Below the pieces are notes generated by a model. That model made no database searches, was not told where the DNA came from, and was given only the letters and a program-made list of their open reading frames with translations. From contig CBDCCI010000001.1 in NCBI GenBank assembly GCA_965214705.1, positions 288,001 to 352,000 of the forward strand: a stretch of DNA of 64,000 bases, written 5' to 3'. Positions 83 through 36,640 of the stretch are shown piece by piece. Position numbers and translations under genes: made by a program. The DNA comes from Alphaproteobacteria bacterium. GTDB lineage: Bacteria > Pseudomonadota > Alphaproteobacteria > UBA828. The stretch's first letter is position 1. Every line of letters starts with the position of its first letter.

Positions 83-1051
83 ATGAGATATCTACCGATC
101 GCTCGGGCGGCTCTGCTGTTGTTCGCGCTGCTGCCGATCGTGCTCGTGCCGGTGGACCGTGCGAGGGGCCAGGAGGTCGTGAGGATCGCCGCTGTTGTCA
201 ACAGCGAGGCGATCTCGATCCCCGATCTCGTGCGGCGCATCGACGTCGCCATCGTGTCGTCCCGACTGCAGGTCAGCGAGGAGCTGCGCCGCCAGCTGGC
301 ACCGCAAGTGCTTCGCTCGCTCATCGATGAACGTCTGAAGGTGCAGGAGGCAGAGCGTCTCGGGGTGACCGTCAGCGAGGCCGACATGGCGAACGCGCGG
401 CGGAGCGTCGAGCAACGCAACGGAATCCCGGCCGGCGCGCTCGACGACTTCCTGCGGCGCCAGGGGCTGGACGTCGCCACCGTCGGGGAGCAACTCCGCG
501 CTGAGATCCTCTGGTCCAAGCTTGTGCGCGGCCGCCTGGGTGCCGCGGTCTCGGTCGGTGAGGGCGAAATCGACGAGGCGATCGCCCGGCTTGAAGCCAA
601 CCGAGGGCGACCCGAATATCGTGTCGCGGAGATTTTTCTGGCAGTCGAATTGAGCGAGCAGGAGGACGAGGTCCGCGCCGCCGCCGCGAGCCTCTACAGG
701 CAGCTAACAGGCGGCGCCAACTTCGCCCAGATCGCCCGTCAATTCTCGCAGAGCGCCACCGCCGCGGTCGGCGGCGACATCGGCTGGGTCGTCGAAGGAC
801 AGCTCCCGAGCGAGATCGAGGCCGTGCTCGCCGAGACAGAGCCCGGATCGATTACATCCCCGGTGCGGGCGTTCGACGGTTACTACATCGTCTCGTTGAT
901 TGACCGCCGCGCGGTGCTCGCGGACGTGCCTGCCGCCGGGCTCGATCGGGAGCGGATCCGGCAGGACATCGCGGGACGCAGACTGGAGATGCTCGCGCGG
1001 CGCTACGTTCGCGACCTGCACCGATCGGCGTTCATCGACGTGCGGATTTGA
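83..1051 (+). CDS. surA: SurA periplasmic chaperone / parvulin PPIase
   Basis: Signal peptide, IAAVVN SurA N-domain, one parvulin domain (FAQIARQFSQSATAAVGGDIGW), C-terminal AFIDVRI. Confidence 0.9.
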   Translation: MRYLPIARAALLLFALLPIVLVPVDRARGQEVVRIAAVVNSEAISIPDLVRRIDVAIVSSRLQVSEELRRQLAPQVLRSLIDERLKVQEAERLGVTVSEADMANARRSVEQRNGIPAGALDDFLRRQGLDVATVGEQLRAEILWSKLVRGRLGAAVSVGEGEIDEAIARLEANRGRPEYRVAEIFLAVELSEQEDEVRAAAASLYRQLTGGANFAQIARQFSQSATAAVGGDIGWVVEGQLPSEIEAVLAETEPGSITSPVRAFDGYYIVSLIDRRAVLADVPAAGLDRERIRQDIAGRRLEMLARRYVRDLHRSAFIDVRI

Positions 1052-1929
1052 CGGGCACAAGCGACCCCAGCGGGGAAGACGCCGGCTGCGACGCCCGGCT
1101 GCCGCCGCTCTCCGCCGTCATCGCGCGCCACGGACTGCATCCCAAGCGACCGCTTGGTCAGCATTTCCTCCTTGATCCCAGCCTGTGCGAGAGAATTGCG
1201 CGGACAGCCCAACCCGGCGCGTCGGCCGTCATATTGGAGGTGGGGCCAGGACCGGGCGGACTAACCAGAGCGCTGCTCGCGGCTGGCGCGGCTCGCGTTG
1301 TCGCGGTGGAGAAGGACCGCCGCTGCGTGACCGCGCTCGGCGAGCTCCAGGCGCGCTATCCCGATCGGCTCGAGATCGTCGAGGGCGACGCGCTCTCCTT
1401 CGATATCGCTACTCTGGGGCCCGCTCGCATCGGGATCGTAGCGAATCTCCCCTACAACGTCGGCACGCGGCTCTTATTGCGATGGCTGGAGCAGGTCGAG
1501 CTGATCGAGAGCATGACCCTCATGTTCCAGAAGGAGGTGGCCGCACGGATCACCGCGGCCGGTGGGCGAGACTACGGCGGCCTCTCGGTGCGCGCACAGT
1601 GGCTCTGCACCTGCGAGCGGCTGTTCGACGTGAGCCCGCGCGCCTTCGTGCCGCCGCCCGGCGTGCTTTCATCGGTGGTTCGCCTGGTGCCGCGGGCTGC
1701 GCCGCTCGCGCCGGCGGAGCCCGACGCCCTCGATGCCGTGACCCGCGCGGCATTCGGTCAGCGCAGGAAGATGCTGCGCCGCGCCCTTCGCACCCTTACC
1801 CCGGACCCGCTAGCGCTGCTTCAGAGCGCCGGCATCTCGCCCGAAGCGCGGGCGGAGACGCTCTCGGTTACCGAATTCTGCGCGCTTGCCCGCGCCTGGG
1901 CGACGACGCGGCACACCAGAGCGCTGTAA
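1048..1929 (+). CDS. rsmA: 16S rRNA m6,2A dimethyltransferase RsmA/KsgA
   Basis: LGQHFL, EVGPGPGGLT SAM motif, ANLPYN, MFQKEVA, FGQRRKML. Confidence 0.97.
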   Translation: MTGTSDPSGEDAGCDARLPPLSAVIARHGLHPKRPLGQHFLLDPSLCERIARTAQPGASAVILEVGPGPGGLTRALLAAGAARVVAVEKDRRCVTALGELQARYPDRLEIVEGDALSFDIATLGPARIGIVANLPYNVGTRLLLRWLEQVELIESMTLMFQKEVAARITAAGGRDYGGLSVRAQWLCTCERLFDVSPRAFVPPPGVLSSVVRLVPRAAPLAPAEPDALDAVTRAAFGQRRKMLRRALRTLTPDPLALLQSAGISPEARAETLSVTEFCALARAWATTRHTRAL

Positions 1930-1947
1930 TTCCGCTGGTAATTCCGC

Positions 1948-1976
1948 TTGCCAATGCGTCCGGCACGCCTTAGTCA
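1948..1976 (+). promoter_or_regulatory. sigma70-type promoter upstream of uORF/GNAT
   Basis: TTGCCA-N17-TAGTCA; a start about 7 nt downstream would fall on the ATG at 1984. Confidence 0.55.
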
Positions 1977-1983
1977 CCCTTTC

Positions 1984-2022
1984 ATGCCACGCTGTTCTCG
2001 CGAGCGACGACGAGACCGCTGA
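1984..2022 (+). CDS. putative Arg-rich leader peptide MPRCSRERRRDR
   Basis: ATG...TGA, 6 of 12 codons Arg including CGA CGA CGA; complementary to the GNAT RBS region. Confidence 0.55.
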   Translation: MPRCSRERRRDR

Positions 2023-2087
2023 CACCGCGGCGCCATCGGCGCTGCGGCATCACCACCTTGCCCGTCCGTCGTCGAGAGCAGAGCGCC

Positions 2088-2603
2088 ATGCCCCCCATCC
2101 GTAAAGAGCGGCCGCAAGACGGCCCGGAGATCGAGTCCCTGCTGGACCGTGCCTTTGGCGCGGACCGTCATGCCCGCCCTTCCTACCGCCTGCGAGAAGG
2201 TATCGAGCCCGTGCACAGCCTCTGCCTCGTCGCCGAGGCCGAGGGTCGAATCCTCGGCACGATCCGACACTGGCCTGTACGGATTGGCACAACGGGATCG
2301 GCGCTGCTGCTAGGGCCGATCGCCGTGAACCCGCCCCAAGAGGGACGCGGAATCGGAGGACTACTAATCCGAACCGCACTCGATCGGGCCGCAGCGGCGG
2401 GACACACGACCGTCGTCGCAGTGGGCGCGCAGGGTTATCTCGGCCGTTTCGGCTTCGAGAGCGCAGCGCGCTACGGGATCAACCTTCCTGGCCTCAAGGA
2501 ATCCGGCCGGCTACTCGCGCTGGCGCTTGCCCCTGGTGCCCTCGACGGTGTGAAAGGTGCGATAGAGCGGGTTAGCCCTGAGCCGGCTTCGTGCCCACCG
2601 TGA
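2088..2603 (+). CDS. GNAT family N-acetyltransferase (YhbS-like)
   Basis: AFGADRHARPSYRLREG, LLGPIAV, QEGRGIG acetyl-CoA motif; start placed at ATG 2088. Confidence 0.88.
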   Translation: MPPIRKERPQDGPEIESLLDRAFGADRHARPSYRLREGIEPVHSLCLVAEAEGRILGTIRHWPVRIGTTGSALLLGPIAVNPPQEGRGIGGLLIRTALDRAAAAGHTTVVAVGAQGYLGRFGFESAARYGINLPGLKESGRLLALALAPGALDGVKGAIERVSPEPASCPP

Positions 2604-3243
2604 GTTTGCCCACGAATTCGTCGAGGCCCTTCAGGCGGTCCCGGCGCAGCCGCTCGGCACGGAGCACCGCGCGCACCTCTTCGACGGACCGTTCGAGCGC
2701 AGTGTTGACCACCACGTAGTCGTATTCGTCGTAGTGACTCATCTCGTCGCCAGCGCGGCTCATTCGCTCCGCGACCACGGCGGGCGTGTCCTGAGCACGG
2801 CGCTTGAGTCGTTCTTCCAGCGCCTCCAGCGACGGCGGCAGGATGAAGATGCGGACCAGATCGCCCTTCACGGCCTCGGCAAGCTGCTGGCTGCCCTGCC
2901 AGTCGATATCGAAGACGACATCGCGGCCGGCATCGAGCGCGCTTTCGACCGGGTCGCGGGCGGTGCCGTACCAGTGGCCGAACACTTCCGCGCATTCCAG
3001 GAACGCCCCGCGCTCCCGCAGACGCGTAAACCCGGCCTCGTCGACGAAGTGATAGTCGCGGCCGTCCATCTCGTCCGGTCGCTTGGGCCGCGTCGTGTGC
3101 GAGACCGAGATTTCGACTCCGTCGCCTTCAAGCTCGACCAGGCGGCGGGTAATGGTCGTCTTGCCCGCACCGGAGGGTGAGGACAGTACCAGCAGGAGGC
3201 CGCGGCGCCCAAAGGTCGGATTGTCGGTGGAGACGCTCACCAC
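2572..3243 (-). CDS. gmk: guanylate kinase
   Basis: SSPSGAGKTT P-loop, SVSHTTR, DGRDYHF, DIDWQG. Confidence 0.97.
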   Translation of the reverse strand: MVSVSTDNPTFGRRGLLLVLSSPSGAGKTTITRRLVELEGDGVEISVSHTTRPKRPDEMDGRDYHFVDEAGFTRLRERGAFLECAEVFGHWYGTARDPVESALDAGRDVVFDIDWQGSQQLAEAVKGDLVRIFILPPSLEALEERLKRRAQDTPAVVAERMSRAGDEMSHYDEYDYVVVNTALERSVEEVRAVLRAERLRRDRLKGLDEFVGKLTVGTKPAQG

Positions 3244-4140
3244 CTACTCCACGTTCTGCGCCTGCTCGCGGAACTGGTCGATGGCCGCCTTGAGCGCGAG
3301 GCCGACCTCCGTGAGCGCGGCATGGGAGGCCTTGGAGCAGAGCGTGTTGGCCTCCCGGTTGAACTCTTGCGCCAGGAAATCCAGCTTGCGTCCGACAGCA
3401 CCCCCCTCCTGCAGATGACGTGCCGCCGCTGCGCAGTGGGACCTGAGTCGGTCGATCTCCTCGGTCACGTCGATCTTGACGGCGAGGAGCGCGAGCTCCG
3501 TTGCCAGCCGATCCTCGGACACCGGCGAGACCGCGCCGATCAGAGCCGCCACCTGCTCTCGCAATCGCTCGCCGAGCGCCTCTTGGCGGGAGGGCGCCAG
3601 GGTCTCGGCTTGGCGTGTGAGCACCACGATCTCCTCGATCCGGTCCGTCAGCGCGGCGGCGAGCGCAGTCCCCTCAGCCTGCCGCTCGCGCACCAGCTCC
3701 GCGAGTGCGATATCCAGCGTCTCCAGCAAGGCAGCGTCGTCCTGGGCGCCCTCGGTGTCGTCGGGTGATTCTGCGGTCTCGATGACACCGCGTAGCGCCA
3801 ACATGCCGTCGAGGCGCGGCGGCGCGATGTCGTCCCGCCCGCGGTACTCGGCGGCAAGGTTGATCAACTCGTCGAGCCACGCCCGGTTGACCCGCATCGC
3901 GGCGGCTTCCGGCGCCTGCGAGAGCCTGAGCCCCACCGTGACGTTGCCGCGCCGAAGCCGCGCAGTCACCGCATTCCGCACCGCCGGATCGAGCCGCTCC
4001 AACCCCTGCGGCAGGCGGCAGCGAATATCCAACGCCCGCCCGTTGACGCTCTTGACCTCCCAGCTCCAGCCGGCCGCGCCATCGCTGCCGCTCGCCCGCG
4101 CAAAGCCGGTCATGCTGGAGATTGCGGCCATGTCCCCCAT
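3244..4140 (-). CDS. yicC: YicC/YloC family endoribonuclease
   Basis: SMTGFA start, EVKSVN, GRKLDFLAQEFNREANTLCSK, REQAQNVE end. Confidence 0.95.
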   Translation of the reverse strand: MGDMAAISSMTGFARASGSDGAAGWSWEVKSVNGRALDIRCRLPQGLERLDPAVRNAVTARLRRGNVTVGLRLSQAPEAAAMRVNRAWLDELINLAAEYRGRDDIAPPRLDGMLALRGVIETAESPDDTEGAQDDAALLETLDIALAELVRERQAEGTALAAALTDRIEEIVVLTRQAETLAPSRQEALGERLREQVAALIGAVSPVSEDRLATELALLAVKIDVTEEIDRLRSHCAAAARHLQEGGAVGRKLDFLAQEFNREANTLCSKASHAALTEVGLALKAAIDQFREQAQNVE

Positions 4141-24482: not shown

Positions 24483-24587
24483 TCAGGGGCAGCTAAGTCG
24501 CAGCCCGCGTAGGGTGGAATGTGCCGTGGCCGCAGCGTCGCGCAAGTGGTGCGTGCCTGCCGGCTCAGTCTCCGTCGGCACCGTCAT
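24483..24587 (-). promoter_or_regulatory. putative leuA leader peptide / attenuator (34 aa, ends ...TLRGLRLSCP*)
   Basis: Leu codons CTA, CTG, CTT near the stop (CTA and CTT rare at this GC); CCCCTG at the stop pairs with CAGGGG about 35 nt downstream. Confidence 0.6.
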
Positions 24588-36064: not shown

Positions 36065-36189
36065 GGGCGAGGGACGTCTCCGGTGAGGTCGAACGGCAAT
36101 CCGCGTTGCGATCATACCGCGCTCCCACAACCGTGTGCACAGGTGCCGCGGCCACTTCCCATACGCGCTTCGAGCACCTATATTGTCGG

Positions 36190-36470
36190 GGTCGGCGGGA
36201 GACCGTCGACTATGGCGATAAACGCTGCTCGAAATAAGCGTTGCGGACCCGGGGGCAGTACCCGGCGCCTCCACCATCCCTTGAGCGGGCGGCTCAAGTT
36301 GCGGGGGCGAACCAGGATCGACGTGCGTGGTAAAGGTGTGGTTTTCGCCCGGCATGGTACCGCCGTTATCGGGCCAACTCAGAGGTGCGAACGACAATGA
36401 AGTCGCACTCGCTGCCTAGCATCGCTAGGTAAGCGCGGCTTGGGGGGCGCCGGGCAACAGAAGCCCCCCG
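36190..36470 (+). ncRNA. ssrA: two-piece (circularly permuted) tmRNA; tag [10 protein letters not shown]
   Basis: Acceptor piece ending GGACCCGGGGGCAGTACCCGGCGCCTCCACCA (36276), hairpin intervening segment, GGGGGCGAACCAGGATCGAC (36303), tag frame 36387-36419, 3' GGGGGG..GGCAACAGAAGCCCCCC; CCTATAT -10 upstream; 5' end approximate. Confidence 0.95.
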
Positions 36471-36499
36471 CTAACCCGGCGTTCCGGCCGGGACCATAA

Positions 36500-36640
36500 A
36501 TCACTGGGCACTCATACGAACGAGAAGCTTCGCGTGCGTTTCGCGCGACGCAGGCCGTGACCGTGGCGAGGCTTCCGGGCTAAGCTAACCGGTGGCGGCG
36601 AACCGGCGTGGTTTGGGGGCATCGGGCAACGGCAGCCCCG
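36500..36640 (+). ncRNA. diverged second copy of the tmRNA tag domain and 3' structure
   Basis: GGGCACTCATACGAACGAGAA aligns with GGGCCAACTCAGAGGTGCGAACGACAA; GTGGTTTGGGGGCATCGGGCAACGGCAGCCCC aligns with GCGGCTTGGGGGGCGCCGGGCAACAGAAGCCCCCC. Confidence 0.6.

Follow-up and report, generated by a model that had tools for sequence, protein, structure and literature searches.

An upstream open reading frame (uORF) carrying consecutive CGA arginine codons precedes a GNAT acetyltransferase gene in the window, the whole 64,000-nucleotide stretch of alphaproteobacterial DNA that was analyzed. This CGA leader is a real and undescribed codon-specific variant of ribosome-dependent translational attenuation. 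It is probably a ribosome-speed switch that turns on the GNAT gene when CGA codons are read slowly. It is very likely that the leader is a translated, CGA-dependent cis-regulator. The full version of the model, in which a codon-specific translational attenuator takes the supply of Arg-tRNA as its signal and releases the ribosome-binding site (RBS) of the GNAT gene as its output, is put forward with moderate confidence, the output being predicted by RNA folding.

Comparison of the related loci indicates that the sensor is codon decoding, and not an arrest peptide or a stop codon, because the peptide, the uORF length, and the stop position vary but the CGA codons are fixed. The conserved unit, as defined from sequence, is a promoter, a start codon approximately 0–3 nt from the predicted transcription start site (TSS), six to eight free codons, and CGA-CGA. 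The new aspect is the use of one rare codon pair, neither a peptide nor an aptamer, as a conserved sensor.

Organization of the leader in the window

The elements of the leader are listed in Table 1. All of the motifs named in a preliminary description of this DNA, including TGTTCTC at 1993 and GAGAGCA at 2074, were recovered in place. The TSS predicted from the position of the promoter is at approximately 1984. A scan with an E. coli-type promoter consensus identified no site in the region 1000–4000, and the assignment of the promoter to 1948–1976 is based on positional conservation. A simple scan detected no intrinsic terminator at the leader. A longer, 22-codon uORF starting at 1954 was rejected: it overlaps the promoter and is present in only five of 13 clade relatives.

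Table 1. Coordinates of the CGA leader elements and the flanking genes in the window.
Feature	Position	Strand	Description
rsmA/ksgA	1048..1929	+	Upstream neighbor, context only; defines the syntenic set; TIGR00755 above cut-off
Predicted sigma-70-like promoter	1948..1976	+	-35 TTGCCA 1948-1953, 17-nt spacer, -10 TAGTCA 1971-1976
uORF, putative sensor	1984..2022	+	12 codons, leaderless or nearly so; ATG 1984, TGA 2020-2022
CTC of the outer stem (helix 1)	1997..1999	+	Within the uORF; pairs with GAG 2076-2078 of the SD-like tract
CGA-CGA-CGA	2005..2013	+	Codons 8-10 of the uORF; putative sensor codons and 5' arm of the RBS-sequestering stem
CGACGACG and partner CGTCGTCG	starting at 2005 and 2067	+	Complementary arms of the window leader
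GC-rich inner hairpin	2025..2047	+	3' of the uORF stop; predicted to draw the two stem arms together
CGTCGTCG	2067..2074	+	3' arm complementary to the CGA run; immediately 5' of the SD-like tract
SD-like purine tract and spacer of GNAT	2074..2087	+	GAGAG 2074-2078, AGAG 2080-2083; predicted to be occluded
GNAT acetyltransferase gene	2088..2603	+	171 aa, YhbS/HqbA family, Pfam GNAT; putative regulated gene

The region 1926–1948, across the rsmA stop codon and the start of the -35 site, contains an 11-nt tandem duplication with a period of 12, which is shared by locus L004 and present as a single copy in L005 and L006. Upstream of the leader, surA directly abuts rsmA (83–1929) with no gene between them, both in the window and in its clade; the two genes usually have pdxA between them. 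The GNAT reading frame is open through the window leader (1992–2087), which accounts for a longer GNAT call from TTG-2058; this feature is not conserved. Downstream, the GNAT gene is convergent with gmk, yicC, mltG, and fabF. The 3' ends of the GNAT and gmk genes overlap by 32 nt (2572–2603), and no terminator is predicted there.

Conservation of the promoter, the uORF, and the CGA pair

Related loci were collected by a GTDB scan with an alignment of 43 of 120 listed GNAT homologs as the query. The best 80 of 578 confirmed relatives were kept, and counts among them are not a census. Grouped by neighboring genes, these best 80 of 578 comprise 22 loci with rsmA upstream, five behind ornithine decarboxylase (odc), 49 that belong mostly to a Rhodobacterales clade, and four others (L016, L022, L026, and L057). 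The uORF is present in 29 of the best 80 of 578 relatives and absent from 46 of the 49 Rhodobacterales-clade loci among them. The uORF-bearing loci are related and represent approximately 10–13 lineages rather than 30 independent cases, according to a quick tree. The GNAT genes that have the leader are only approximately 47–60% identical to that of the window. The record of L024 is labeled Oceanobacillus (Bacillota), and its GNAT and the neighboring gene group in the Rhodobacterales clade; the record is probably mislabeled or contaminated.

The initial 26 loci were chosen after the CGA pairs had been seen and thus form a biased set; two selection-independent tests were then run. The uORF ATG, frame, and stop are retained in all 14 loci of the window's clade. 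The promoter, the ATG, and an in-frame CGA-CG[A/G] pair, positioned mostly at codons 8–9, are present in 22 of 22 rsmA-syntenic loci among the best 80 of 578 relatives. The stretch searched in each of the 23 syntenic loci, including the window, contains exactly one TTG-N17/18-TA site, which is located 7–10 nt 5' of the uORF ATG. In a promoter-anchored test, the first ATG was in frame with CGA-CG[A/G] in 25 of 25 loci (the 23 syntenic ones, L022, and L026), and L016 and L057 lack a TTG-N17/18-TA site under the anchoring rule. The distance from the ATG to the CGA pair is 21 nt in 20 loci, 24 nt in one, and 27 nt in four, always whole codons. Lengths that are not multiples of three occur in the spacer between the -10 element and the ATG (7, 9, 10, or 34 nt) and in the distance from the CGA pair to the GNAT gene. 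The conservation of the ATG and of the frame suggests that the uORF is translated.

A pattern scan of both strands of 750,823 bases (87 loci and the window) gave 23 matches, all of them at the CGA leader. Controls on the same bases yielded no matches with the pair in frames +1 or +2 and zero to two matches for other Arg pairs. The pattern was derived from these leaders, and its informative outcomes are the lack of matches elsewhere and the frame control. Together with the 22 syntenic loci, the scan bears out the earlier proposal that a uORF is conserved close to, or directly at, the predicted TSS. No second gene with a CGA leader was found in the 750,823 bases, and the argB-like gene of the window does not have one. 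A looser motif occurs in approximately 1% of random 230-nt stretches and in four of the 54 remaining loci. Three of these matches, in L027, L028, and L043, are short uORFs that end at the CGA pair or one codon past it, and the fourth falls within odc. In L084, from a plasmid of Sphingomonas paeninsulae, the start of a distant GNAT homolog is overlapped by an ORF (approximately 2847–3000) that carries CGA-CGG at codons 6–7; this ORF may be either a variant or a chance occurrence.

The uORF had been described as leaderless. A strictly leaderless start at every locus is not supported, because the spacer between the -10 element and the ATG is 7 nt in seven of the 23 syntenic loci and 9–10 nt in the other 16, which corresponds to transcript leaders of about 2–3 nt if the TSS is located as predicted. 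Leaderless initiation is used in Caulobacter, and its efficiency is reported to drop with each added leader base (PMC8459731); therefore, loci with the 9–10-nt spacer may initiate less well. In the same class of bacteria, trpL of S. meliloti is a leaderless attenuator ORF (PMC10117765).

When 30 loci are aligned on the pair, 29 of them have CGA as its second codon. The codon after the pair encodes Arg in 21 loci (CGA in 19), Gly in six, Gln in two, and is a stop in one. In contrast to the fixed codons, each position before the pair is occupied by at least six different residues, the uORF length varies from 8 to 40 aa, and the peptides are unrelated outside the window's clade. The motif RRR(D/E)x-stop, which had been suggested as the conserved unit, is thus restricted to the 14 loci of that clade. 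Whatever the length of the uORF, its stop is positioned 63–98 nt 5' of the GNAT start (27 loci), and C exceeds G in the stretch after the stop in most loci. The uORFs at L017 3865, L018 3875, and L033 3866 end with Ala-Pro-Pro-(Pro/Arg) after the CGA pair, possibly a second slow motif; at the end of the L041 uORF, Leu replaces the second Pro. Frameshifting or readthrough from the uORF into the GNAT gene was rejected because the offset between the two frames differs among the loci (0, 1, and 2 in 15, 7, and 8 of 30).

In L016, the uORF and the stem are retained after relocation together with the GNAT gene to another locus. The leader and the GNAT gene (1985–3992) lie there behind genes that we take to be glnB-glnA-like. 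The leader has no promoter of its own at this locus, indicating that it travels with the GNAT gene.

RNA folding and predicted release of the ribosome-binding site

The segment 1984–2100 folds as a long rod with a predicted energy of -52.4 kcal/mol (z = -3.86), and none of 200 shuffled sequences is equally stable. When 160 stretches of 107 nt were sampled from the window, 30 contained an 8-bp perfect inverted repeat, which is therefore not rare by itself. Each of the two outer stems proposed in the preliminary description is present, but they cannot both form in full at once, since both use G2074. The conserved register combines CTC 1997–1999 paired to GAG 2076–2078 with the 8-bp CGA stem CGACGACG/CGTCGTCG.

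Across the 14-locus clade (13 distinct sequences), 97% of the cells of the three helices are paired. Helix 1 (CTC/GAG) has 96% of cells paired in the 13 distinct sequences and no compensatory change. The inner hairpin 2025–2047 has 97% of cells paired, and one of its nine pairs is changed on both sides, in five sequences. Covariation had been anticipated for CGACGACG/CGTCGTCG; however, no pair of this stem is changed on both sides. Distant loci either have the partner at another place or lack it, and within the clade the CGA stem does not vary, so that it provides no covariation evidence.

The effect of a ribosome on the structure was modeled with a footprint of 28 nt, an assumed size, and the energetic cost of opening the GNAT RBS was calculated. 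In the window, the predicted cost is 21.0 kcal/mol without a ribosome and 13.5 kcal/mol with a ribosome at initiation. It decreases to 6.8 and 8.5 kcal/mol when the first and second CGA, respectively, are in the A site. The minimum is broad and extends from about three codons before the first CGA to one codon after it. A pause at the leader stop, which had been considered as a trigger, is disfavored by a cost of 14.7 kcal/mol at the stop versus 6.8 kcal/mol at the first CGA. With the footprint at the first CGA, opening the window RBS becomes 14.2 kcal/mol cheaper, and a decrease of 14 kcal/mol is reached at none of 300 random positions and in none of 41 window genes. The decrease is at least 7 kcal/mol in 14 of 14 clade loci. 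For the window's clade, the earlier idea that a ribosome pausing on the CGA run would free the GNAT RBS thus finds support in silico.

Outside the clade, only nine of 16 loci have a predicted decrease of at least 3 kcal/mol; the corresponding figure for random positions is 47 of 300. In 25 of 30 loci, the predicted partner of the CGA pair lies no farther than 45 nt from the GNAT start, with offsets of approximately -3 to -29. In eight of 15 representatives, the CGA pair pairs near the RBS better than in at least 37 of 40 shuffled sequences, with partner offsets that differ. In the other seven (L017, L018, L026, L027, L028, L043, and L057), predicted sequestration of the RBS by the CGA pair is no better than in shuffled sequences, and L022, L026, and L057 have no predicted RBS effect. 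The CGA-codon sensor is thus more widely kept than the RBS stem. Therefore, the Azospirillum-like loci must use an output other than the RBS stem. This output is possibly Rho, because the uORF stop stays 63–98 nt before the GNAT gene.

CGA usage and the proposed mechanism

In 53 ORFs of the window, CGA accounts for 69 of 1530 Arg codons, and none of the 136 Arg-Arg pairs is CGA-CGA. The preliminary description rightly considered CGA rare, but AGA, with 28 occurrences, is the rarer of the two Arg codons. In the flanking genes of the leader loci, CGA makes up 252 of 3868 Arg codons (6.5%), and CGA-CGA makes up five of 434 Arg-Arg pairs. According to papers on enteric bacteria, CGA is read by tRNA-Arg(ICG) through an inefficient I:A wobble, which is assumed to apply to these hosts. 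The modifications s2C32 and m2A37 are reported to restrict the reading of CGA by ICG tRNAs in E. coli (PMC6103715). Slowing of ribosomes by CGA-containing Arg pairs is documented with an attenuator assay in Salmonella (PMC4046918, PMC11805395); such pairs strongly de-attenuate the his leader (PMC4046918), and CGA-CGA is described as slow even without starvation (PMC11805395).

In the proposed mechanism, the predicted, conserved promoter would start the transcript at the uORF ATG or 2–3 nt 5' of it, and a ribosome would translate the uORF. The ribosome would then reach CGA-CGA at codons 8–9, to be read slowly by tRNA-Arg(ICG). With an ample supply of charged and decoding-competent tRNA-Arg(ICG), the ribosome would clear the CGA codons and terminate at the stop, after which the folding model predicts that the uORF re-pairs onto the GNAT RBS (OFF). 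When this tRNA is scarce, most simply because of arginine limitation, the dwell on CGA would cover the 5' arm, and the RBS would be open (ON). The uORF peptide would be a by-product. The mechanism presumes that the hosts read CGA as described in the papers, that the dwell time would set GNAT translation, and that arginine limitation would be the natural trigger. The signal is probably the supply of Arg-tRNA(ICG), with tRNA modification and polyamines as possible alternatives. CGA is not needed for arginine sensing as such, because frequent Arg codons sense equally well in orf34 of Salmonella.

As a reader of arginine supply, the leader would represent an alphaproteobacterial arginine attenuator; as a reader of wobble-decoding competence, it would form a feedback loop that acts on tRNA function. 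In both cases, the leader is the first physiological handle on the acetyltransferases of the YhbS/HqbA family.

The GNAT target and its genomic context

The GNAT protein belongs to the YhbS/HqbA subfamily by profile and fold. Its best match in the PDB is E. coli YhbS (4RS2), with a profile E-value of 4e-23 and a TMq of 0.81. The structure model of GNAT (pLDDT 91) superimposes on 4RS2 with a Z-score of 21.2 and an rmsd of 2.2 over 156 aligned residues at approximately 31% identity. The next structural neighbors after YhbS are Eis (Z 16.8) and AAC(2') (Z 15.8), both scoring above the N-acetylglutamate synthases, which lie amid generic GNATs (Z approximately 14.5, rmsd 2.6, 128 aligned). The profile match to the N-acetylglutamate synthase 5YGE has an E-value of 5e-5 over 61 positions only.

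An NCBIfam search of the window assigned no ArgA family to the GNAT, the fold searches singled out no substrate class, and the ESM Atlas contained generic GNAT/YhbS clusters only. A search for fused GNAT forms that could hint at a substrate, which is weak evidence in any case, returned one uninformative match of 373 aa among 8000 scored candidates. All 84 GNAT sequences compared have R27, R36, and R60, and 82 have R141, with R36 biased by its position within a search pattern. The conserved arginines hint at an anionic acceptor. According to PMC10710024, HqbA of E. coli is an Hfq-binding protein for which no acetylation substrate has been assigned.

Members of the same GNAT family follow odc in Rhizobiales and Thalassospira, in some loci with homospermidine synthase (hss) behind. 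The hss label is presumptive and stems from our recognition of the L002 protein. An odc-GNAT operon under an ar45/speF leader occurs in five of the best 80 of 578 GTDB loci and in four plasmid records. In L055 and L077, GNAT-hss is flanked by two copies of odc, each with its own ar45 match. An ar45/speF-like leader was seen by eye at the odc-GNAT operon of L085 (Thalassospira marina, approximately 1540–1856). The ar45 family is listed for Rhizobiales (PMC3346310). The operon context loosely ties the GNAT family to ornithine/polyamine metabolism. If the switch works as proposed, the GNAT would tentatively be expected to act in arginine/ornithine/polyamine metabolism, and the foremost, if speculative, guess at its activity is that of a short N-acetylglutamate synthase.

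Alternative explanations

It is possible, though unlikely, that the same switch gauges the quality of I:A wobble reading, as set by I34, s2C32, and m2A37 of tRNA-Arg(ICG) or by the polyamine level, and that the GNAT feeds back on it. This reading is kept alive by the strict use of CGA, whereas Salmonella orf34 accepts any Arg codon. It also agrees with the limitation of CGA reading by s2C32 and m2A37 in E. coli (PMC6103715), with the odc-GNAT operons under ar45/speF leaders (five of the best 80 of 578 loci and four plasmid records), and with R27, R36, R60, and R141, which could suit an anionic substrate. However, a literature search for a link between polyamines and CGA decoding returned only unrelated matches, the only conserved neighbor related to RNA modification is the rRNA methylase gene rsmA and none is a tRNA-modification gene, and the text of PMC10710024 gives no acetylation substrate even for E. 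coli HqbA. Its strongest form is a shade more doubtful: the leader would be a dedicated I:A wobble gauge that reads the competence of tRNA-Arg(ICG), through modification or polyamines, and not arginine, and the GNAT would in turn influence the translation machinery or the pool of polyamines. If true, it would constitute a one-codon homeostatic loop common to several alphaproteobacterial lineages and provide a first function for the enzyme family.

Sensing of antibiotics or of general translation stress before a detoxifying acetyltransferase, in the manner of ermDL with its +X+ motif or of toiL, is improbable. R-E-R and R-R-R are +X+ macrolide-arrest motifs (PMC12583479), L014, L020, L022, and L026 read R-L-R, and toiL is reported to respond to many drug classes by RBS release (PMC12121999). 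The structural proximity of the GNAT to Eis and AAC(2') points in the same direction. Nevertheless, +X+ is missing from five of the 30 uORFs (L018, L027, L028, L033, and L041) and does not need CGA codons, and the GNAT gene occupies a fixed core-genome locus across lineages, unlike a resistance gene.

More improbable still is a translated uORF whose output is not a conditional RBS switch but termination by Rho within the C-rich stretch after the stop, or else a constant damping of GNAT expression. The constant position of the stop before the GNAT gene (63–98 nt in 27 loci), the excess of C over G after it, the lack of an intrinsic terminator at the window leader, the lack of a predicted RBS effect in L022, L026, and L057, and the constitutive slowness of CGA-CGA (PMC11805395) would fit such an output. 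The large decrease in RBS opening cost in the clade is nonetheless far beyond the background, and Rho may follow RBS occlusion rather than replace it, as in toiL (PMC12121999).

Conservation of CGACGA as an RNA or DNA motif, such as a stem arm or protein site, with an incidental ORF is very improbable. In its favor, the run in the clade has a perfectly complementary partner that is conserved to the same degree. Against it, all 25 promoter-anchored loci have the ATG in frame and differ in length by whole codons only, other frames give no matches, and the partner strand shifts among lineages while CGA-CGA stays.

Comparison with known leaders

The CGA leader belongs neither to SpeFL nor to the Erm leaders nor to the Rfam families speF and ar45, since for each of them it lacks a defining feature that was tested. 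It resembles the polycysteine leaderless attenuators of mycobacteria, such as Ms5788A, in which a leaderless short ORF stands first in the transcript, at least two consecutive codons specify the same amino acid, and a paused ribosome blocks the duplex that hides the RBS, resulting in a translational ON-switch (10.1101/834739). The CGA uORF is predicted to start at, or about 2–3 nt from, the 5' end of its transcript. In contrast to Ms5788A, the amino acid is Arg and not Cys, the codon is fixed as CGA, the hosts are Alphaproteobacteria, and the 750 kb examined contain a single GNAT target instead of a known biosynthetic regulon. An in-frame run of at least two Arg codons, CGA-CG[A/G], as in the polycysteine type, is present in 22 of 22 syntenic loci among the best 80 of 578. 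Relief of the RBS by a paused ribosome is predicted in silico for 14 of 14 clade loci and not for seven of 15 lineage representatives.

SpeFL captures ornithine. The Salmonella orf34/SpeFL has 34 codons with Arg at positions 12–13, and rare and frequent Arg codons sense arginine equally well in it (PMC6386406). Two consecutive Arg codons that control mRNA structure are common to orf34/SpeFL and the CGA leader, which shares the ornithine/polyamine link through GNAT operons elsewhere. However, orf34 precedes the ornithine decarboxylase gene speF and encodes a conserved peptide (PMC6386406), whereas the downstream gene is GNAT in all 30 CGA-leader loci, the uORFs are 8–40 aa long with variable residues, and the CGA pair is located mostly at codons 8–9. 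Stalling near codons 7–10 of a short uORF exposes the RBS in ErmCL/ErmDL, and the window uORF contains +X+; yet the Erm leaders need peptide and drug and precede resistance methylases (PMC12583479), whereas here the codon is conserved and +X+ is missing in five of 30 loci. Ligand sensing by the peptide, for which ErmCL and SpeFL had been the suggested precedents, is disfavored because the peptide is not conserved.

The ar45 (RF02347) and speF (RF00518) leaders head odc-GNAT(-hss) operons and contain an invariant CGACG[A/G], but they are long structured RNAs, for which PMC1273637 and PMC3346310 identify no ligand, and their CGACGR has no consistent in-frame start. A hidden uORF homologous to that of the CGA leader was rejected, as the nearest in-frame start is 3 to 59 codons off in ten ar45-type leaders; three of the ten have a TTG three codons upstream of CGACGR, and the rest are without a consistent start. 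No Rfam family matches the window leader or 12 other CGA-leader loci. The speF and ar45 models gave no match anywhere in the window, including 1880–2160 at E-values up to 10, and among 19 loci they match odc leaders only. Two matches with weak E-values, one to a generic hairpin rich in GC and one to a short piece of an lncRNA, were discarded.

No uORF control was seen for E. coli YhbS/HqbA (4RS2), which is of the same subfamily, in the text of PMC10710024; Hfq binding is known for the E. coli protein, and the likeness of the window GNAT is one of sequence and fold. No description of the CGA leader was found in the CC-licensed PMC and bioRxiv literature. Term searches in the main texts of the alphaproteobacterial uORF and Ribo-seq papers PMC13285730, PMC4117421, and PMC10117765 found no mention of it; their supplements could list one. 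A blastn search of the leader against plasmids found nothing.

Two further RNA-related features are present in the window. The leuA leader contains a 34-codon ORF on the reverse strand (24483–24587); Leu codons lie close to the end of this ORF, which is a candidate for encoding a leuA leader peptide. A permuted two-piece tmRNA, ordinary for Alphaproteobacteria, is located at 36152–36510.
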